Below are positions 2,690 through 14,420 of a stretch of 64,000 nt of DNA, one piece after another (the first letter of the stretch is position 1; every line of letters starts with the position of its first letter). Origin of the DNA: Girardia tigrina (lineage: Eukaryota). Made by a program: the position numbers and the translations under genes. Below the pieces are notes generated by a model. The model was given only the letters and a program-made list of their open reading frames with translations. It had not been told where the DNA came from and ran no database searches. Where the stretch lies: assembly GCA_001938485.1 (NCBI GenBank), contig MQRK01220918.1:1-64000 (forward strand), written 5' to 3'.

Positions 2690-3524
2690 AGCCTATGCAC
2701 GTGTTAAGTACAATAGGAGTTGTATAGATGTAAATTTTACATATAATATAAAAGGTTATGTATCTTGGTTACATTAACCATAGTACTTGTGATTGTTGAT
2801 GGGGTACTTTAGGCGATTTATTAGGTATTGTTTGATGGTAAACAACATACATTTATCACATGGGTTTCAGATATATACAAAAAATTATTTTCCAATGAAT
2901 CTATGAAGCCTAGTCGTTTGAAAAAACATATGCAGATTATACATGTTGATAAGAAGGATAAGTCAATTGAATATTTTAAGAATCTTAAGAGAAATTTCTA
3001 AAACAATTAGCAATTTCTTCAATGTTTAAAAGAGCAAGTGGGAAAGTTGATGATGGTTTGAGTGCCTCAAATAGTATTGCAGAAATTATTGCTAATGGTA
3101 TTGTTCAAAGGTGTATTGATGAGATGGTTGATGATGTTAAGCTACACCTTCTTGAAAAACTCCAACCAAAAAATTTTCTCTATAGATTGATGAGTCAACT
3201 TTATCAGACAACTCTGCTTTAGTACTTGGCTATGTAAGATATTTTGATGAAGATTTTAGCTTAAAAGAAGAGCTGTTGTTTGCTGAAACACTAACCTACG
3301 TTACTAAAGGAGATACTGTATCTATTCTGGTGAAAACATTTTTCATTAAAATGATATTCCTTTAATGAACATAATGAACCGTTGCTATGGTAACCGGAAC
3401 CTTTGCTAAGGTGATCGGAAAGGTTGCTATGGTAACTGGAACCGTTGCTAAGGTAACCGTGACCGTTGCTATGGCAACGAGGTACCCCCCGAGGGGTTAG
3501 TCCAGAACTCTCATTTTCTCCCTA
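2690..3524 (+). mobile_element. X-box module copy B, middle replaced by a hAT fragment
   Basis: 2690-2890 matches ~160-350. 3376-3524 matches the X-box array and end of copy A. Confidence 0.75.
2890..3365 (+). pseudogene. hAT (Buster/Charlie-type) transposase fragment
   Basis: Translates to SNESMKPSRLKKHM..H..KKDKSIEYF, NGIVQRCIDEM, IDEST, YVRY, EELLF; stops and frameshifts present. Confidence 0.8.
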
Positions 3525-3595
3525 ATCACTCTCAACTTATTTTTTAAGAGATTTCGATTAGACTTACGTAAGTAATTACATAATCATTCATTTAC

Positions 3596-3627
3596 TATAT
3601 AAAAGCAATAAAATGAACATAATCAGT
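3596..3627 (+). promoter_or_regulatory. TATA box plus TCAGT initiator-like core promoter
   Basis: TATATAAAAG at 3596 and TCAGT at 3623-3627, with its A 29 nt from the TATA start. Mirrored in the right arm. Confidence 0.5.
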
Positions 3628-3670
3628 GATCTGATGATGACGGTTAAACCGTCGAAATATAAAATATCAA
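3622..3670 (+). ncRNA. Hammerhead ribozyme-like core (type I, Penelope pLTR style)
   Basis: CTGATGA-t-GACGGT(taa)ACCGTC-GAAA-tataaaatatc: conserved core boxes and a perfect stem II. Stem I/III register is imperfect. Confidence 0.55.
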
Positions 3671-3792
3671 AAAATATTTTTAAATGGCGTTAATTTGTTT
3701 TTATTATTATATAACTATGACAAATTAATATAAAATAATAAAAATTAATATAAAACAAATATTCAAAGAATGTATTCACAAATTAAAATATT

Positions 3793-4716
3793 TTATTCGT
3801 CTCCAAATTGTTGATTATATAAATATTTCATTATTAATAATTGTTTCTCGACATTTTCTATCGTATTCTTCCACAATTCTCTATTTGATCCCGACTTTTT
3901 AATTGTTTCTTCGATTTCTATTTCGTATTCCTTTACTCTTTTATCTTTCTTTGAATTACAATCCGAAGATTTATTTTCGATAAATGTTTCCATATTTGTA
4001 CCATTCTCCTCCATTTCAACATCCATAAGATCTGTTTCGATCGGTTCATTGTTTGAACCAGTTAATAAATTTGTGGAATTAATATTGTTTGAAATATTTT
4101 CATTATTTAATTCTGGCAAATTATCGTAAGTATTGTTTGGATGAAATTCTTCGATTATTTCGAAATTCATTTCTTCATATTTACTTTCATTATTACCTTC
4201 ATTATTACCTTCATTATTACCTTCATTATTACCTTCATTATTATTATTTGAACACCATTCATTTATATTCTCTGAAAGGTCAATAATTTCGAAAACCTCA
4301 TTCAAATTTGTTTTCATTTCTTTTTCATCTATTTGATGAGAATCACTATCGGAATAATTTATATTTTTTTGACTCCTGGTCTTCTTCGAACCTTTTACCC
4401 AATAATGTACTCGTGGAATAGTTACATTAAACAACTTTGATATTTCCGTCAGTGATTTTCCTTCTTTATATAGTTTTATTGCTTCAATTCTTTCATTTTT
4501 AAGTTTTATACGGTTATGTTTAAATTGAGTAGGCTTATTTGTTTGTTTTAATTGAGATGTATATTGCTGGATATGTAAACCATGTTTATTTAATAAATAT
4601 AGAAGAGTATTTTTTCCCAATCCTAGAGATTTTTGAATCTCTTCAAAACTTTGACCTTTTTCAACTAATTCTTGGACTTTGGTCGTCACTGTTGACTGAT
4701 TTGCAGTATAAACCAT
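3793..4716 (-). CDS. Twin helix-turn-helix protein with acidic NNEG repeat and C-terminal coiled coil (307 aa), copy 1
   Basis: Intact intronless ORF in very AT-rich DNA. HTH-like motifs VQELVEKGQSFEEIQKSLGLGKNTL and AIKLYKEGKSLTEISKLFNVTIPRVHYWVK. No DDE domain. Confidence 0.75.
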   Translation of the reverse strand: MVYTANQSTVTTKVQELVEKGQSFEEIQKSLGLGKNTLLYLLNKHGLHIQQYTSQLKQTNKPTQFKHNRIKLKNERIEAIKLYKEGKSLTEISKLFNVTIPRVHYWVKGSKKTRSQKNINYSDSDSHQIDEKEMKTNLNEVFEIIDLSENINEWCSNNNNEGNNEGNNEGNNEGNNESKYEEMNFEIIEEFHPNNTYDNLPELNNENISNNINSTNLLTGSNNEPIETDLMDVEMEENGTNMETFIENKSSDCNSKKDKRVKEYEIEIEETIKKSGSNRELWKNTIENVEKQLLIMKYLYNQQFGDE

Positions 4717-5611
4717 TATAAAAATAAACCATTATAAAAATCGTAAATGCAACATGATTAAAGTTTAAATTATAATAATATTTTCTCCTTATTTTATTGG
4801 ATTAATAAAATAAATTATCAAAAAAATTGTATAAATAATTTTTAAAATAATTATAATTTTGCCTTTCTCAGAGACGGTAAGTACTCATAAACCGTTTTTA
4901 TTATTTTTTCGTCAAACGTCTCTTATATGACTTCGTCCATTTTACAATGACTAAATTATGATTTATATTAATTTTGATTTGATCTTTTTATTTCGACATT
5001 CGAAAATATACTATTCACTTTTATTTTAAATTTTTAGTTTCGAAAAAATCTTCATAGACGATTTTTATTTTTATCATAAAATTCGTTTTCTTATATTTTA
5101 AAGATTTTTAAAATTTATTGAGAAATATTACTTTTTATTTAGACATTCGAATAATAATTTTTATTAAATTAATATTTTTACTTATACTTAAAAATTAGAA
5201 AATGTATACTATACTTAAATTACAATTACGTTACATTATTTTTTCGTTAAAATATTTCTTTATTTTATTTCTATGAGGAATTATTTAATTTTCATTTCGT
5301 ATATAAATTCAGAATAAAATAATTTAAATTAAATTATATTTCTAAACCTCTAATTTAAATAACAATTCCATAATAAAATATTTTAAAATTATTTTGAAAA
5401 ATATTATTAACAAGATTATATTAATATTTTTAAATACATTATTTATAATTAAATAAATCTTTGCATTACAATACATTAAATCCCTTTCAAATAGATTTAA
5501 AATACTATTTTAAAATTACCGGTTTTCTCCGAAATTAAAACCACTCAAAATAATTAAAAAATTGAATTATTTTCAAAATTTAAAATCTAAAAATAAGACC
5601 GGTCTTAAAAT

Positions 5612-5655
5612 TTATTTTTGTAATTAATTTCGGTGGATTACTCGCAATCTTCAGA
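5612..5655 (-). ncRNA. Minimal hammerhead ribozyme in a Penelope pseudo-LTR
   Basis: Minus strand reads TTTTGT-CTGAAGA-ttgcgagtaatccacc-GAAA-TTAA-TT-ACAAAA: perfect stem I, palindromic TTAA stem III loop, degraded stem II. Lies downstream of a GIY-YIG 3' end. Confidence 0.65.
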
Positions 5656-5975
5656 CAAAATTTTCACTGGCTTTTTGCAGCTTATATATGAGAAAGGTGA
5701 TTTTGAAATCAATCATGTAATAAAGGCTCTATTTGAAAATGTTTAACAGAGAAGTTGAGTGTGAAGCTTGAATATTAATTTTTGGATCCATGGATCTTAT
5801 TAATAAGGCCTCACACATTACTCTCTCCCAGTAATTTTTAAATCGATTACACAGAATTTTAAAATCATTTTCTCCGATTTTCTTTTTACATTTTACAAAT
5901 TATAACCCACTTGAATCAAGGTATATTTTATCGATTTCTTATTCAGAGGGTTTTAAACATTTAAAATCATCAATT

Positions 5976-6365
5976 TTGAAAAGTTTGATCCCAAATAACA
6001 TGAATCTAAAAATTATTTCCCAATCATATAAAATTTGTGATATGTTCAGTAATAAATCTCCCACTCCTCTCGGTTTGTGCTCTGATCTTGTTTATAAATA
6101 TACATGTAATGGGTGTAATGCCACATACATTGGAGAGACATCTCGTCATCTCTGCAAACGGATCAAAGAGCATAGTCGGTTGGGTAATGGGAGCAATATT
6201 GCCGAACATAATTTAAAATGTAAAAAGAAAATCAAAGAAAATGATTTTAAAATACTGTGTATTCGATTTAAAAATTACTGGGAGAGAGTAACGTGTGAGG
6301 CCTTATTAATAAGATCCATGGATCCAAAATTAATATCCAAGCTTCACACTCAACTTCTCTGTTAA
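5976..6365 (+). pseudogene. Penelope-type GIY-YIG endonuclease fragment
   Basis: LVYKYTCNGCNATYIGETSRHLCKRIKEH...EALLIR. A 1-nt frameshift near the end relative to the inverted copy. Confidence 0.85.
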
Positions 6366-6703
6366 ACATTTTCAAATAGAGCCTTTATTACATGATTGAT
6401 TGCACAATCTTAATTGCACAATTTTAATTATAAGTCTTTATTTAATTTATTTATAATGACGTTTTAAGTTTTTGTTTTGAGAAATACTGAATTTTATTTT
6501 CAGTTATGCTACGTTTTTTTATTCAAAGTTATCCCCAGTTTTCTAGTGACAAAAAAATCTCGGGAAAAGGTTGTGAAAATTCCCGTTTCCTGGGATGCTG
6601 AATATGGCTGGGAAATGGAAGCTCTAGTAGAGATGTCTTTTACCAATATTTCTTTTTGTATTAGATATTGTTAGGGAATTAAATACAGTTGATTACAAAT
6701 TAA

Positions 6704-7098
6704 TAACGGATAACATGAAATAGTAGGACACCTACTATTTTAATAGTAGGTGGAAAAAAAATTGAAAAGGCGCCCAATATTGGTTTACACCTACTATTTG
6801 GTGCTTTTGTTTTNNNNNNNNNNNNNNNNNNNNNNNNNNNNNNNNNNNNNNNNNNNNNNNNNNNNNNNNNNNNNNNNNNNNNNNNNNNNNNNNNNNNNNN
6901 NNNNNNNNNNNNNNNNNNNNNNNNNNNNNNNNNNNNNNNNNNNNNNNNNNNNNNNNNNNNNNNNNNNNNNNNNNNNNNNNNNNNNNNTACACCTACTATT
7001 TGATTCCACCTACTATTTTAATAGTAGGTGGAAAATTTTTTGAAAACTTCATTACACCTACTATTTCATGTCCACCTACTATTTGATGTTATCCGTTA
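6704..7098. mobile_element. MITE-like element with TIRs and internal cacctactattt repeats (spans an N gap)
   Basis: TAACGGATAACAT...ATGTTATCCGTTA terminal inverted repeats. Confidence 0.7.
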
Positions 7099-9659
7099 AT
7101 TAAAAGAATAAACGTAATTTAGTAACACTAAAAATAGAGTAAATAATTGAATTATTTCAATAGAATTATCAAAGATCAAAATTTTTATGAATGCGAGGAG
7201 ATAAAATTTTGATTCTTCTGTTTTTTTAATTAACCACTTTTATCTTTTATTGAAGCGACCTTAAAGATAATTAATATTTTTCTTGTCCCAATCACTGTAC
7301 CAGTTCCTTTTTTGCGTTCTAAAATTTGATAAATTAATTTATGAGTAATCTCTTTTACGATTAAAATGTTTTTTAAGTTACTAAATTCTACAAGTAATTT
7401 TCTTGTTCTTAAAAATATTTTACAAATATGTTTATTTGATTTTTCTTTTATATTAATCAAGAATGAGATAATCAATGACGAAAATATAATAGTTGGAAAG
7501 AATGTATTGCCGGTATATATTTTTTAAGACTTTTATTATTATATTTCTTTTTTTAACCCAATTTTGAAATTTCTTTTCTGTCTTTTATTTAATATAATTT
7601 TATTTATTTTTTAAATATAAACAAAAGTTACAAAGAAATTTAAATCGCAACTTTAAGATAATTAAAATTTATTATGCTACTCAAAAATATTTCTTCGTTA
7701 TAATCATTTATTATTATTAATGAAAGAATAACAAAGTAATGTTTTTCATAAAACATTTATTTTATATTTACAATGTTTAACAATATTCAAATTTAGAATA
7801 AAATTAAAATTATCATAAAGTCATACTTTTACTCAAATTTTAAACATTAGATTTCCCAAAGATCTCATACAAATTTTGATAATTTAAAACTTAAAATATT
7901 TTAATTCATCATTTTTATTAAATGTTTTATACATTCAATATATGTTTTTTCCGAAATAACAAATATCACAAAATACAATTTTGATATTCTTCTCATTTTT
8001 AAAAAAAATTAATATTTTCTGACATTTATTTAAAATTTTTTAATTTGTTTCCTTGATCATAATTAAAAATTGTAATTATAAGAATAGTAAAAAGTATGTT
8101 CATTATGAGGAATATTTTTGAATGGATTATTCGCACTTTTGAAATGTAAATAACAACTTTAAAATTAAATTAATATTTTTAATACCGGTTTTCTCCGAAA
8201 TTAATATCACTCAATATATTTTAAAAAATTGATTTTTTTCCTCAAAATTTAAAATCTTAAATTAAGGCCGATTATTAATTTTAGTAATTAAGACCGGTCT
8301 TAATTTTAGATTTTAAATTTTGAAAATAATTCAATTTTTTAATTATTTTGAGTGGTTTTAATTTCCAAGAAAACCGGTAATTTTAAAATAGTATTTGAAA
8401 TCTATTTGAAAGTGATTTAGTGTATTGTAATGCAAAGAATTATTTAATTATAAATAATGTATTTAAAAATATTAATATAATCTTGATAATAATATTTTTC
8501 AAAATAATTTTAAAATATTTTACTATGGAATTGTTATTTAAATAAGAGGTTTAAAAGTATAATTTAAATTCATCAAGCAAGGAAGATGCATAACTACGAA
8601 TGTTTTGTGGAGAATTGTCCTGGAAACAATTCAATTTGTGATTTCAATAAAAATATTGGAAATAATTTTCATCTTCTTAATATTCATTAAACACAAAATT
8701 TAAACATTTATTTCCACTCCTTTCCTATTTTAATAATCAAAATCTTTTTTGTCTTTTAAAGATTAAAAAGCTATTAAATTTTTTAATATCTTTTATTTAA
8801 CTTAAAAATTCTCATTTTATTTACTTTTACTTTTATTTATCAATATTGTGTTTTTAATTGCTGTTTAACTTATTTAAAAATTTTATTTTTTTATTTTAAT
8901 CACTTTACAGATAAAGCTATTTATGTAAATGAATTTATTTATTTTAAAAATTTTAATTATGAAATTTTATTCTACTTAAATTAATAATTGGGTTCTTTTG
9001 TATTTAAAAAAATATTCATAGTAAGATACCGTACCCAGTATTTTAATTTAAATTATTTTATTCTGAATTTATATGCGAAATGAAAATTAAATAATTCCTC
9101 ATAGAAACAAAATAAAGAAATATTTTAACGAAAAAATTATGTAACGTAATTGTAATTTAAGTATAGTATACATTTTCTAATTTTTAAGTATAAGTAAAAA
9201 TATTAATTTCATAAAAATTATTATTCGAATGTCTAAATAAAAAGTAATATTTCTCAATAAATTTTAAAAATCTTTAAAATATAAGAAAACGAATTTTATG
9301 ATAAAAATGAAAATCATCTATGAAGATTTTTTCGAAACTAAAAATTTAAAATAAAGGTGAATAGTATATTTTCGAATGTCGAAATAAAAAGATCAAATCA
9401 AAATTAATATAAATCATAACTTAGTCATTGTAAAATGGACGAAGTCATATAAGAGACGTTTGACGAAAAAATAATAAAAACGGTTTATGAGTACTTACCG
9501 TCTGTGAGAAAGGCAAAATTATAATTATTTTAAAAATTATTTATACAAATTTTTTTGATAATTTATTTTATTAATCCAATAAAATAAGGAGAAAATATTA
9601 TTATAATTTAAACTTTAATCATGTTGCATTTACGATTTTTATAATGGTTTATTTTTATA

Positions 9660-10667
9660 ATGGTTTATACTGCAAATCAGTCAACAGTGACGACCAAAGT
9701 CCAAGAATTAGTTGAAAAAGGTCAAAGTTTTGAAGAGATTCAAAAATCTCTAGGATTGGGAAAAAATACTCTTCTATATTTATTAAATAAACATGGTTTA
9801 CATATCCAGCAATATACATCTCAATTAAAACAAACAAATAAGCCTACTCAATTTAAACATAACCGTATAAAACTTAAAAATGAAAGAATTGAAGCAATAA
9901 AACTATATAAAGAAGGAAAATCACTGACGGAAATATCAAAGTTGTTTAATGTAACTATTCCACGAGTACATTATTGGGTAAAAGGTTCGAAGAAGACCAG
10001 GAGTCAACAAAATATAAATTATTCCGATAATGATTCTCATCAAATAGATGAAAAAGAAATGAAAACAAATTTGAATGAAGTTTTCGAAATTATTGACCTT
10101 TCAGAGAATATAAATGAATGGTGTTCAAATAATAATAATGAAGGTAATAATGAAGGTAATAATGAAGGTAATAATGAAGGTAATAATGAAGGTAATAATG
10201 AAGGTAATAATGAAGGTAATAATGAAGGTAATAATGAAGGTAATAATGAAGGTAATGATGAAGGTAATAATGAAAGTAAATATGAAGAACTGAATTTCGA
10301 AATAATCGAAGAATTTCATCCAAACAATACTTACGATAATTTGCCAGAATTAAATAATGAAAATATTTCAAACAATATTAATTCCACAAGTTTATTAATT
10401 GGTTCAAACAATGAACCGATCGAAACAGATCTTATAGATGTTGAAATGGAGGAGAATGGTACAAATATGGAAACACTTATCGAAAATAAATCTTCGGATT
10501 GTAATGCAAAGAAAGATGAAAGAGTAAAAGAATATGAAATAGAAATCGAAGAAATAATCAAAAAATCGGGATCAAATAGAGAATTGTTGAAGAATGCGAT
10601 TGAAAATGTCGAGAAACAATTATTAATAATGAAATATTTATATAATCAACAATTTGGAGACGAATAA
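9660..10667 (+). CDS. Twin helix-turn-helix protein (335 aa), copy 2
   Basis: Inverted paralog of 3793-4716. The 28 extra aa equal 7 more 12-bp NNEG units. Confidence 0.75.
   Translation: MVYTANQSTVTTKVQELVEKGQSFEEIQKSLGLGKNTLLYLLNKHGLHIQQYTSQLKQTNKPTQFKHNRIKLKNERIEAIKLYKEGKSLTEISKLFNVTIPRVHYWVKGSKKTRSQQNINYSDNDSHQIDEKEMKTNLNEVFEIIDLSENINEWCSNNNNEGNNEGNNEGNNEGNNEGNNEGNNEGNNEGNNEGNNEGNDEGNNESKYEELNFEIIEEFHPNNTYDNLPELNNENISNNINSTSLLIGSNNEPIETDLIDVEMEENGTNMETLIENKSSDCNAKKDERVKEYEIEIEEIIKKSGSNRELLKNAIENVEKQLLIMKYLYNQQFGDE
10134..10274 (+). repeat. 12-bp coding minisatellite (aataatgaaggt)n encoding NNEG
   Basis: Direct tandem array; shorter in copy 1 (~4186-4242). Confidence 0.9.
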
Positions 10668-10936
10668 AATATTTTAATTTGTGAATACATTCTTTGAATA
10701 TTTTTTTTATATTAATTTTTAATTATTTTATATTAATTTGTCATACTTATTTATTAATAAAAACAAATTAACGCCATTTAAAAATATTTTTTGATATTTT
10801 ATATTTTGACAGTTTAACCGTCTTCATCAGATCACTGATTACGTTCATTTAATTGCTTTTATATAATAAATGAATGATTATGCAATTAATTACGTAAGTC
10901 TAATCGAAATCTCTTAAAAAATAAGTTGAGAGTGAG

Positions 10937-13430
10937 TAGGGAGAAAATGAGAGTTCGGACCAACCCCTCGATGGGGGGTTACCCCGTTGCCATAGCAACG
11001 GTCGCGGTTACGATAACAACGGTTCCAGTTACCATACCAACGGTTCCGATTGTTAGGGTTTCAAAAAATACATGTGAACACTTTTGATAAAATTTTATAA
11101 AGGAAAATTTTTAAATAATTCTTTCAGTAAAATTATTAATTTCAAACAAAATAATATTTAGTTTAACAAAACTTGGAATAAAAAATTATAAATGTTTGTT
11201 TTACTCCATCAAAAATTATAAATATTTTAATCTTTGTTTTATCTCATCAATTTTCAAGGCTCAGGAAAATTACTATATAAACAACATCAAATCTAGTTTT
11301 AGTTGACCCAAAAATATTTGCAAGAAAATCAACCAAGAAAAAGTCGTGTTAACAAGTAAAGTGCAAACTTATTTTATTTTTACTTTATTCTTTTTTAAAT
11401 ATTAAACCATAAGTACCACGTATGGGAGAAGAGGGTTTAATATAAAATCTTTGAGTTTTAATCAAATCATCGTCCGACTTTGGAGATTCGCAGTTTTTAC
11501 TGTAACCTGTTAACTCGCACAAAATATTGATTGTGTTTGTATTCTGTCATCCAAAATTGAATTATTATTATTATTATTTGTGACTTGTCGATATTTGTTA
11601 TTTGAAATAAAGTTTGATAAAGGAATTTATGTTCATTATTCATATATTTATGTTGGAAGACCTTTCTGAATAATTGGAGTCAGATCAAAAATTAAAGATT
11701 ATTGACTGAGAATTATTGATAAAAGATTATTGATCAAAGAATAAAGAATAGAGATTTACGATTAAAGATAAAGATTAAAGATTTGTATTTTAAAAAGTGA
11801 ATAATTGAATTAAAGATAAATTTTAAATAATACCCAACACGATTAGCTTAGACAGCAACGGTTCCGAACACCCTAACATAGACAGCAACGGTGGCGATCA
11901 CCCTAGTTACGGTTCCGGCTCACTTGGTAACGGTAACCAAGTTCTTAGTTACTATAGCAACGGTAACCAAGGGATGTTTTTCATTTGCAACGGATGCAGT
12001 GATTCAAGGCGGTTGTAAAAATGGTAACGGTTTCCATACCCATACCAACTGTGACCATTTCCTTAGTAACAGAAGAAAAAAGTGCTAATCAATCTCTGCA
12101 CAGTGCCCAAATGTGCTAATCGATACTTGCAAAAAGCTAATCAATAGTGAACATTTTGCCGCACATTTCTATTGTGCTAGCACAGTGCTTTTTAAGTTGC
12201 ACATGTGCAAAAGTTCAAAAATCAATACATAAAATTTTTAAAGTACTAGTAAAAATCGATATCATGTGTTTGATGCACATTTTGATTTTCCATCTGAATG
12301 TGCAATTAGAATTTTCATATATTGATTACTTTTACCTATAATGAACATAATGTGTAAATTTACTAAACATCCACATAGATTTTATCCCTAGGCAGAGGTA
12401 CAAGGAAGCAGAATATCAAAAAAGTGCTGATGCACTTGAGTAGTAATCCATATACGTACATTCAGATACCATAAAAACATTTTTGAAAAAGTGCTGATAA
12501 ATTGATTTTTTTCGAATATTTCTGAAATTCTTAAAGAAGTGCTCAAAAATCGATTTTTTCGTATATATATGAAACCCATATGTTATATGTATGTTACTTA
12601 CCATCAAACAATACCTCATGAATCACCTAATGTATTTCATCAACAATCACAAGTACCTTGGTTACCGTAACCAAGATATATAACCTTTTATATTACATGT
12701 AAAAACTACATGTATAAAACTCCTATAGTACTTCAAACATGGATCGACACTATACATAACATTTACATAATCAGCTAAGTACCTGAGTCTAGGCATCAAC
12801 CATCAAAAGTACCTTGGTTACCGTAACCACGATACATAACCTTTTAATATTATATATAAAAACAATCGAAAACACCTTAGAAACCGTCACCCTTACCTTA
12901 AAAAACCATGAAAAATACCTTAAAAAACATCGAAAACATGTAAAAACCACCAAAATTACACAAAAAAGTGCACAAATCAATACTGCACTCGTCTGCACAT
13001 GTACTGCCTAGGCTGCACTGTGCAAATCAATACTTCACATGTGCAAGTGTGCAAAACCAATAAGTTCACAATTGTGCAAAGTGCACTATATTTATGCTTT
13101 TTATATAATAGAGCTTGGCAGAGGTCGAAGGTAGTAAGATATCAAAAATCTGTCTGAACACATGAAACCCTAGAGAGAAACCCATAGATTAATAGCCGGA
13201 ATATGATCTTAGATTCTCGAAAAAACGCACACATATGGATTATTGAGATGCTGTGTTTTATAGTGTAACGTGAGGGAGAACTCTCATACGGTATAGCCTA
13301 GGCAGGCGAAACAAGCAAAATATCAAAAATCTGTCTGAACACATGGATAGTAACTCATATGAATAGTCAGATTCAATATCACCGTTTTTGAAAAAAATCG
13401 ATACCTAGTGCTTTTTCGAATATCTGCACA
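10937..13430 (-). mobile_element. X-box module copy C (longest copy, reverse), interrupted by a solo LTR
   Basis: Reverse complement of copy A out to ~12860. Continues with diverged internal repeats (12387-12520 similar to 13113-13170 and 13297-13425). Confidence 0.75.
11051..11839. mobile_element. Solo LTR (Gypsy-like)
   Basis: TGTTAGGGT...ACCCAACA termini and 4-bp TSD CGAT. Removing it restores the X-box array. Confidence 0.8.
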
Positions 13431-13691
13431 TTATGTGTGCAAATAATATATTATAGATATGTATTATATTATGATATTATACTATGTTATCAACCAATAT
13501 CGTATCAACCATTCAAAACATGACCGTATCCAAGGGGATATCATCATACATCCATCATGTCAACGTATTGCATTCATCATATAAATGCACAACTGAACAT
13601 GTAAAAAATACAGAAAATACTGAATGATAGATAAAGATATATATATAATATATAATTTTAATATATAATTCTTTTTAATATATAATTTTAA

Positions 13692-14420
13692 GAATTTCAG
13701 AATTATTCGAAAAAATCAATTTATCAGCATTTTTCAAAAATTTTGATATTGAATCTGAATTTACGTATATGGATTACTATTCAAGTGCATCAGCACTTTT
13801 TTGATATTCTGCTTCATTGTACCTCTGCCTAGGGCTAAAATCGATATGCATTTTGTGTAAATTTACACATTATGTTCATTATAGGGAAAAGTAATCAATA
13901 TATGTAAATTCTAATTTCACATTCAGATGGAAAATCAAAATGTGCATCAAACACATGATAACGATTTTTGACACTAGTACTTTTAAAAAGTTCATGTATT
14001 GATTTTTGAACTTTTGCACATGTGCAACTTAAAAAGCACTGTGCTAGCAAATTAGAAATGTGCGGCAAAATGTGCACTATCGATTAGATTTTTTAAAGTA
14101 TCGATTAGCACATCTGGGCACTGTGCACCGATCGATTAGCACTTTTTTTCGGTTGCTAAGGAAATGGTCACGGTTGGTATGGATATGGAAACCGTTACCA
14201 TGTTTACAACCGCCTTGAATCACTGTATCCGTTGCAAATGAAAAACATCCCTTGGTTACCGTTGCTATGGTAACTAAGACCTTGGTTACCGTTACGAAGT
14301 GAGCCGGAACCATTACTGGGATGTTCGGAACCGTTACTGAGGTGATCAGAACCGTTGCTGTCTAAGCTAAGGTAATCGGAACCGTTGGTATGGTAACTGG
14401 AACCGTTGCTATGGCAATTA
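13692..14420 (+). mobile_element. X-box module copy D (truncated at both ends)
   Basis: Matches ~365-1117 and the reverse complement of copy C. Confidence 0.8.

Follow-up and report, generated by a model that had tools for sequence, protein, structure and literature searches.

A large clustered family of short helix-turn-helix genes in Girardia tigrina: probable host regulators that bind DNA

Host genes related to transposase DNA-binding domains

KRAB zinc-finger clusters consist of birth-and-death genes with a variable number of reader units, in which a conserved scaffold is combined with variable contact residues. The family of helix-turn-helix (HTH) genes described here from Girardia tigrina shares with them the clustering, the birth-and-death, the variable units and the contrast between scaffold and contact positions, but it has no KRAB or C2H2 domain, a single exon and no family-wide effector. 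Capture of a transposase DNA-binding domain has been described for KRAB-transposase fusions (Cosby et al., 10.1101/2020.05.07.082677), which a FLYWCH chimera of the present family resembles in this respect. One study reports that pogo-derived HTH-Psq and CENPB transcription factors underwent lineage-specific expansions (Mukherjee and Moroz 2023, PMC10027918); its largest HTH-Psq counts are 43 for Hydra and 16 for Aplysia, and its main text contains no flatworm terms. As in those sets, HTH genes of transposon type have multiplied here within a single lineage, and clear orthologs are lacking elsewhere. Unlike the sets described in that paper, the present one has roughly 100 genes or more, each of a single exon; their units are all CENP-B_N-like and vary in number, and the genes have a CCAAT box in common.

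The Drosophila genes CAG and CG4570, as described in PMC4231638 and PMC13548663, are alike in that the DNA-binding part of a transposase was kept, DDE was lost, terminal repeats are lacking and selection is purifying. However, CAG is presented there as one syntenic gene with a dN/dS of 0.08, whereas the family here has a high turnover, a dN/dS of 0.5-0.8 and no Tc5 HTH subdomain. From the six domestication criteria listed in PMC4231638, three features were found here, namely hallmark-free flanks, transposase similarity and an intact frame under mild constraint. Distal antenna (Dan), which according to PMC11178893 binds DNA and self-associates, and other pipsqueak-motif proteins treated there also have a CENP-B/transposase-like HTH at the N-terminus and a long disordered region after it, but the proteins of our window give no Pfam HTH_psq match and show tandem units, a terminal helix and a far larger family. 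The Caenorhabditis F-box A2 proteins form another multicopy host family that is subject to purifying selection and built around a captured transposase HTH (PMC12062965); in contrast to the units here, their HTH is reported as mariner-type, single and fused to F-box/FTH, and it showed no DNA binding there. No description of the present family was found in the literature, subscription journals aside, although the transcription-factor table of the S. mediterranea catalogue contains 15 occurrences of 'tigger', which might hide family members.

Genes A and B and their predicted products

The window, that is the whole stretch of 64,000 nucleotides analysed (contig MQRK01220918.1, assembly GCA_001938485.1), carries gene A (3793..4716, minus strand, 307 aa) and gene B (9660..10667, plus strand, 335 aa) head-to-head, both confirmed as real ORFs. 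Their frames, of 312 and 340 codons, exceed all other N-free stop-to-stop frames of the window, the third having 236 codons and the longest in 20 shuffles 95-152. Since each is one open frame from Met to stop in genomic DNA, both may be read from the genome as intronless. The genes sit in an inverted duplication of about 2.2 kb, with arms (no strand assigned) at 3414..5608, carrying A, and 8288..11050, carrying B and about 470 extra bases at 8571-9038. The copies are near-identical (98.5% over 4173-5336 and 94.6% over 3414-4243), so that their earlier description as divergent is true of orientation and not of sequence. An assembly artefact is unlikely because the arms differ by 2-8% once the core is left aside and the two halves of the spacer are unrelated; the 400 identical bases could reflect collapse rather than gene conversion.

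Both proteins consist of two HTH units, an Asn/Glu-rich linker and a C-terminal helix. HTH1 (4585..4707, minus strand, aa 4-44 in A; 9669..9791, plus strand, in B) has, in A, three predicted helices and, when considered by itself, weak support from Pfam. HTH2 (4372..4515, minus strand, aa 68-115 in A; 9861..10004, plus strand, in B) has a constrained scaffold and a variable recognition helix, and was matched in A over aa 74-112 by HTH_23 (E 7e-7) and CENP-B_N (E 6e-5, 23.1 bits with a cut-off of 21.2). In the linker, a 12-bp minisatellite codes for NNEG, with 4 units in A (4173..4243, minus strand) and 11 in B (10133..10287, plus strand), and these 7 NNEG-type units make up the length gap between A and B. 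The array is private to these two genes and missing from the other clade members compared. The C-terminal helix (3805..3951, minus strand, aa 256-304 in A; 10509..10655, plus strand, in B, with Leu in place of a near-invariant Trp) is specific to clade 1 of the family and belongs to no Pfam family.

In the predicted structure, a pair of three-helix units (pLDDT about 82 and 90) is followed by a linker that is disordered (pLDDT <50) and by a single long C-terminal helix (85-88 at its end). Fold searches returned generic HTH and helix matches only, with none in Foldseek at E<=0.001 and best Z of 6.6 and 9.4. No catalytic domain was found in A or B by Pfam at E<=1. The first-pass annotation, which had described long undisrupted twin-HTH ORFs without a catalytic domain, an in-frame difference of 7 NNEG units and a C-terminal helix, was thus borne out in these points. 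HTH_psq was not among the Pfam families for A and B at E<=1, and a DUX-type double homeodomain was rejected, no Homeodomain match being present and the DUX4 rows of the fold search having E>0.2.

A CCAAT box lies 84 bases 5' of the start codon in both genes (4796..4800, minus strand, in A; 9576..9580, plus strand, in B), and an AATAAA of A (3792..3797, minus strand) that overlaps the stop codon may be a polyadenylation signal. Contigs of run X1, guessed to be RNA, align to 3800-4201 and 4215-5138 (identity about 95-96%) and show no listed frameshift within the ORF. However, they may be DNA because they extend 420 bases upstream, beyond the CCAAT box. Their 28 listed ORF differences (48 further rows being unlisted) comprise 7 silent and 21 residue-changing ones and 0 stops, and were not counted as support. 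Neither was a single weak hint, namely that an X5 contig with a depth of 2.7 and 17 differences shows a run of T 12 bases beyond the AATAAA.

Size, intactness and selective constraint of the family

Searches of the own genome with three queries gave 56, 96 and 219 matches, among which, in a hand count of the listed matches with alleles included, about 140 distinct open frames of at least 200 codons fall into three clades. Probable alleles and redundant contigs enter these counts, and the size of the family is put at around a hundred genes or more, which are compact and unbroken, carry between 1 and 7 HTH units of CENP-B_N (pogo-like) type and often lie in mixed clusters with both orientations. 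The earlier picture of two copies was therefore right about the copies and missed the large clustered family around them. Most matches of at least 100 residues were free of stops (27 of 29 for one query, 46 of 49 for another), whereas the N-terminus of a MULE transposase, a control query of similar divergence, was stop-free in 4 of its 50 first-listed matches in the same genome. Among 26 genes inspected from clade 1, 15 are intact, 8 broken and 3 cut by gaps, and the ORFs close at a conserved stop after the C-terminal helix. Simulated neutral survival left a mean of 1.6-2.5 of 13 genes intact, but this value is biased because the 13 genes were picked for long frames, so the intactness argument is carried by the MULE control.

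The dN/dS values, calculated with our own MG94 code, indicated mild purifying selection: the ratio was 0.71-0.78 for the window clade (p 0.002-0.02) and lower for clade 2 (0.50-0.52, p<1e-10). In the window clade, HTH2 had 0.47-0.50, while HTH1 (0.76-0.82, p 0.4-0.5) and the C-terminal helix (0.50-0.58, p 0.06-0.16) were not significantly different from 1 and the linker (0.83-0.93) was indistinguishable from neutral. Within HTH2, the scaffold was at 0.27-0.31 versus 1.21 for the recognition positions in the window clade (p<1e-6), and at 0.22-0.24 versus 0.65-0.68 in clade 2 (p 0.007). This fit excluded one unit that a deletion had put out of alignment, and the partition was set after the alignments had been viewed. 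HTH1 did not show this contrast. The value of 1.21 was not significantly above 1 (p 0.3-0.5), and positive selection was not significant in M1a versus M2a (p 0.10 and 0.88).

No homology was detectable among the C-terminal portions of the three clades (probability 0.2% for clade 1 versus 2), so that the family has no single effector common to all. One chimera, an open gene of 303 codons, joins a MULE FLYWCH N-terminus in frame to the linker and helix of clade 1. A CCAAT box was found 80-141 bases 5' of the start in 28 of 31 genes, upstream of 10 of the 11 clade-2 starts with full upstream DNA and of 10/10 clade-3 starts, the background being 104 of 3063 windows of 50 bases. Paralogs have in common only the ORF and, in most of them, a short upstream stretch with this box, and between distant paralogs DNA homology ends at the ORF edges. 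A processed retrogene family was ruled out, as the 3' flanks have no A-tail and the upstream CCAAT is retained, and so was a bacterial or contaminant origin, the neighbours being host exons and eukaryotic transposons.

Origin of the HTH units and competing explanations

HTH profiles matched the pogo N-termini of the same genome (best E 2e-7), and clade-2 units matched CENP-B_N (E 5e-8 and 2e-7). The HTH2 profile also matched Sleeping Beauty PAI (E 0.002), and the source superfamily is weakly resolved: in a comparison of 46 columns, whose set was picked as CENP-B_N matches, only HTH1 of clade 2 grouped with pogo in the tree, at unstarred support of 93/88. Judged from these profiles, the source is likely pogo. 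A and B are not full pogo/Tigger transposases, since CENP-B_N is present while DDE_1, terminal inverted repeats and the second subdomain HTH_Tnp_Tc5 (none at E<=1, present in true pogo pieces) are absent. The clade-2 layout, including a C-terminal domain of 75 aa, recurs in unnamed proteins of other assemblies at 24-27% identity (iE 5e-9 and 4e-7; best reversed control 0.11). Word-index protein searches gave nothing relevant (none, one unrelated hit, and one input member only), the best atlas score of 0.78 came without a usable hit, and no relatives were found in JGI metagenome contigs.

The reading that we favour, with a probability of about 0.62, is that A and B belong to a large clustered family of host DNA-binding chromatin regulators with HTH units likely derived from pogo. 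Genes of active elements also show purifying selection and promoters, and the ORFs might instead be accessory or cargo genes of a mobile element that has escaped recognition, selection on which would keep them open. The transposase-like HTH, high copy number and single-exon layout would fit this, as would the chimera behind a MULE 5' part and four young copies with 1.6-2.6 kb of flank in common at 94-96%. However, no inverted-repeat pair is common to 20 genes inspected (9 had no spanning repeat, 6 direct matches only and 5 inverted ones), and the DNA upstream of A is essentially unique, B being the sole strong match to its 600 bases. Moreover, copies lie in mixed clusters, viral contigs contain no relative, and MULE, a true transposon of this genome, is mostly broken, which makes such a role within an element improbable. 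The accessory role proposed in the first-pass annotation is thus unsupported, neither element ends nor shared flanks having been found, and its wording of the ORFs as non-host is not supported either. Neutral decay of deleted transposases agrees with the 8 broken genes among 26 of clade 1 and the linker dN/dS near 1, but is largely refuted by the stop-free rates relative to MULE, dN/dS below 1, the conserved CCAAT, the lack of DDE and the deep conservation of the clade-2 layout. Continuation of homologs into a DDE domain, which had been named as a refutation of the original proposal, was looked for in 57 downstream frames of the 20 genes, and no DDE family was found.

The same family could also consist of host genes whose HTH units bind proteins rather than DNA, as proposed for the nematode F-box A2 proteins (PMC12062965), a precedent with which the quick change of surface positions is compatible, since partner diversification would produce it as well. 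But HTH2 together with its flanks is strongly basic (aa 51-115 have 16 K/R versus 4 D/E), the variation falls on the classical base-contacting positions, and arrays of up to 7 units and the FLYWCH swap fit DNA reading, so we consider protein binding rather unlikely. There is also a small chance that the genes are truncated-transposase repressors, or selfish amplified genes, which damp pogo transposition at element ends and have little wider regulatory role. In its favour are the thousands of CENP-B_N candidates that the genome contains (a first look gave 3617), rapid turnover and weak constraint; against it, the HTH units are distant from the sampled pogo N-termini (28.5 bits at best versus 43-53 for unnamed family-like proteins) and the Tc5 subdomain is absent. 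A transcription-factor-like protein and a domesticated transposase N-terminus, both named at the outset, are supported by a pogo-like HTH without DDE, dN/dS below 1 and mostly unbroken copies. The acidic activation suggested in the first-pass annotation is unsupported because the linker evolves almost neutrally and that of clade 2 carries basic KRK stretches.

Outlook for planarian gene regulation

These patterns suggest a birth-and-death, fast-diversifying family that likely serves as host regulators rather than as parts of jumping genes. In these genes, an HTH unit probably taken from pogo-type transposases stands beside a linker that is disordered and a helix at the C-terminus; the CCAAT box may drive transcription via NF-Y, HTH2 would read DNA, and the helix could bind itself or a co-regulator. 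Local duplication, gain and loss of HTH units and change of the recognition helix would then keep giving rise to new specificities of binding, and about a third of the copies may decay. A further reading, which we hold to be doubtful, is a flatworm counterpart of the KRAB zinc-finger system made from pogo HTH. In it, clustered genes of a single exon, driven by NF-Y, would track and silence transposons or repeats in stem cells or germ cells through 1-7 reader units, whose recognition helices diversify and can even be exchanged for the DNA-binding domain of a different transposon. Positive selection on DNA-contact residues, a KRAB-ZFP-like trait, was not significant here (1.21 against a scaffold of 0.3).

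Short transposase-like genes are easily dismissed as transposon debris. Even on the ordinary reading, the family exceeds the HTH-Psq expansions tabulated in PMC10027918. Absence of KRAB and SCAN domains is noted in planarian transcription-factor catalogues (PMC9522251). If true, 100 or more constrained DNA-reader genes would constitute an overlooked class of regulators, of considerable size, in animals amenable to RNAi, and would offer a direct test of how a KRAB-less animal evolves sequence-specific readers against a transposon-rich genome.

The gene pair and its inverted duplication

The longest N-free open reading frames in the window were gene A (3793-4716, minus strand, 307 aa) and gene B (9660-10667, plus strand, 335 aa), both far above the expectation from shuffling of the window, as the first-pass annotation had proposed when it singled out two intact ORFs. 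They lie head-to-head in the arms of an inverted duplication (3414-5608 and 8288-11050; 94.6-98.5% identity). The arms showed no mismatch over 4400-4799, which spans both helix-turn-helix (HTH) units and the start region, and 2-8% mismatches nearer their ends; the mismatch-free stretch is compatible with gene conversion or, alternatively, could reflect assembly collapse. A single short palindromic element, whose two ends match, spans the N gap between the genes (6700-7100), which favours true contiguity across it. Genes A and B differ by seven NNEG-type units and 12 residues, in line with the in-frame seven-unit difference noted earlier. The layout read from the sequence, two HTH motifs, an Asn/Glu-rich linker and a C-terminal helix, was likewise recovered: in the structure model, a disordered linker joins two predicted three-helix units to a terminal helix, and Pfam named the second unit (HTH2) HTH_23/CENP-B_N. 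The window proteins gave no match to Pfam HTH_psq or to homeodomain.

Pieces of a GIY-YIG (Penelope-like) retroelement flank gene A on both sides (5607-6409 and 3527-3714) and occur joined together at two other loci of the genome (L038 and L042). A high-copy repeat of 21-base units occupies 827-1166, 3376-3500, 10935-11050, 11843-12535 and 13687-14418, and at each outer end the inverted duplication terminates within such a repeat; its core is the near-palindromic GTTGCTATGGTAAC, which resembles an RFX X-box.

Extent and relatives of the family

Searches were made of the 1.43-Gb AT-rich animal assembly to which the contig belongs, with 150 candidates scored per search. Residues 1-119 of the window protein gave 56 matches and its final 53 residues 30, while two diverged family members gave 96 and 219. 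By hand count, the matches listed contain at least about 140 separate open frames of 200 or more codons; this number covers the best 150 of the 219 matches for one query and includes alleles and redundant contigs. The intact pair annotated at first stands, and its scope of two copies does not. Clade 1, that of the window, combines one to three HTH units with the terminal helix; in clade 2 there are two units and a helical end of another kind, 75 aa long; and clade 3 carries up to seven units, with a worn HTH at the end. Members are clustered, with at least six on contig C219237, clades 2 and 3 together in both orientations on C249139 and C179814, and head-to-head pairs of two other subfamilies (94-95% identity) on C169042 and C185163 (loci L039:4338-8536 and, on C185163, L036/L037). 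Near one member, two tandem papain-type-like cysteine protease pieces, 97% identical and with one long frame each, were observed (L050:541-1852).

In one chimera (L044:4742-5650, plus strand; locus on G000:C218133), open for 303 codons, a MULE transposase contributes its first 139 codons (FLYWCH, E 2e-13), which are joined in frame to a clade-1 linker and helix. This single case suggests that the clade-1 tail is able to work behind another DNA-binding module. The MULE relatives are broken, and some extend into the catalytic region. Inverted repeats of 130-190 bases flank the chimera at a distance (3623-4027 and 7517-7823) and were not common to the MULE relatives checked.

A search of 1.84 billion representatives returned mostly generic tandem-HTH proteins. 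Against the family HTH profile, several unnamed proteins, AT-rich and carried on short contigs, scored 43-53 bits, compared with at most 28.5 for pogo N-termini, and two to six HTH units of the same type were found in the unnamed proteins P0004, P0013, P0015, P0023, P0034, P0038, P0069, P0079, P0113 and P0136 of public assemblies. The clade-2 C-terminal domain occurs in three of them (P0015 and P0069 match its profile, P0079 aligns with it), so the clade-2 layout predates this genome. Of the transposase parts sampled, pogo CENP-B_N subdomains came nearest, and a 46-column tree gave weak support for the pogo link, for clade-2 HTH1 alone. Nuclear pseudogene copies of COX1 were also numerous (31 matches; L085-L087); in them AGR stands for Ser, AAA for Asn, ATA for Ile and TGA for Trp, as in the echinoderm/flatworm mitochondrial code, which makes a flatworm host likely.

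Selection and the transposase alternative

Among matches of 100 or more residues, 27/29 and 46/49 were stop-free in two query searches, compared with 4 of the first 50 matches for a MULE transposase control of similar divergence. Of 26 clade-1 genes, 15 were intact, 8 broken and 3 interrupted by gaps, which is a birth-and-death pattern. Codon models gave dN/dS of 0.71-0.78 for 13 clade-1 genes and 0.50-0.52 for 12 clade-2 genes; the dN/dS of about 1 with frequent stops, which the first-pass annotation had named as contrary to its reading, was not found. In clade 1, HTH2 had 0.47-0.50, and the linker (0.83-0.93), HTH1 (0.76-0.82) and helix (0.50-0.58) were not significantly below 1. With base-contact positions assigned by the classical numbering, dN/dS was 0.27-0.31 for the scaffold versus 1.21 for base contacts in 21 HTH2-type units, and 0.22-0.24 versus 0.65-0.68 in 13 clade-2 units. 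This contrast was significant under a partition chosen with the alignments already in view; the excess over 1 at base-contact positions was not significant, and the contrast was absent from HTH1.

A deleted transposase was expected to have homologs running into a DDE domain. However, intact clade-1 frames stop directly after the helix, and 57 frames on the same strand, lying up to 2.5 kb downstream of 20 genes, included none with a DDE family. About 300 bases past one clade-2 gene a broken pogo begins, a separate element that has an N-terminus of its own (L037:4418-5000). The family is not a pogo transposase. Nor was the proposal of an element's accessory protein supported, since no inverted-repeat pair was common to the flanks of the 20 genes tested and homology between the window genes and their paralogs was limited to the ORF; in the genome search, the 600 bases upstream of gene A strongly matched B alone. 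Three of the six domesticated-transposase criteria set out in PMC4231638 apply here: flanks lacking transposon hallmarks, transposase similarity and a constrained intact frame.

Promoter, duplication and proposed role

A CCAAT box was found 80-141 bases before the start in 28/31, 10/11 and 10/10 starts, against a background of 3.4% of comparable 50-base windows, the paralogs being non-independent samples. It is present in all three clades and common to most paralogs, and the 3' flanks of family genes showed no A-tail. The kept promoter and missing A-tail indicate duplication at the DNA level and argue against retroposition as the copying route. CCAAT is the site of NF-Y, and we infer that NF-Y acts at these boxes. 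Planarian stem cells express NF-Y subunits, according to PMC4494696.

We favour, with a probability of roughly 60%, single-exon host genes encoding DNA-gripping proteins. The CCAAT promoter would drive their transcription, and the basic CENP-B_N-type units, judged by fold and charge, would grip DNA. The acidic linker would act as a spacer, with the NNEG array a product of private slippage, and the clade-specific helical end is a putative binder of itself or a co-regulator. New specificities would arise by duplication, gain or loss of units and change of the recognition helix. The targets may be genes or transposons; a role in the silencing of transposons seems unlikely. CAG and CG4570 (PMC4231638, PMC13548663) and Dan (PMC11178893) similarly have a transposase reader with no DDE, and the lineage-specific expansions of PMC10027918 resemble the family in their working. 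No published account of this family was found in the literature searched, and planarian catalogues may conceal some of it under the labels 'TIGD' or 'POGK-like'.
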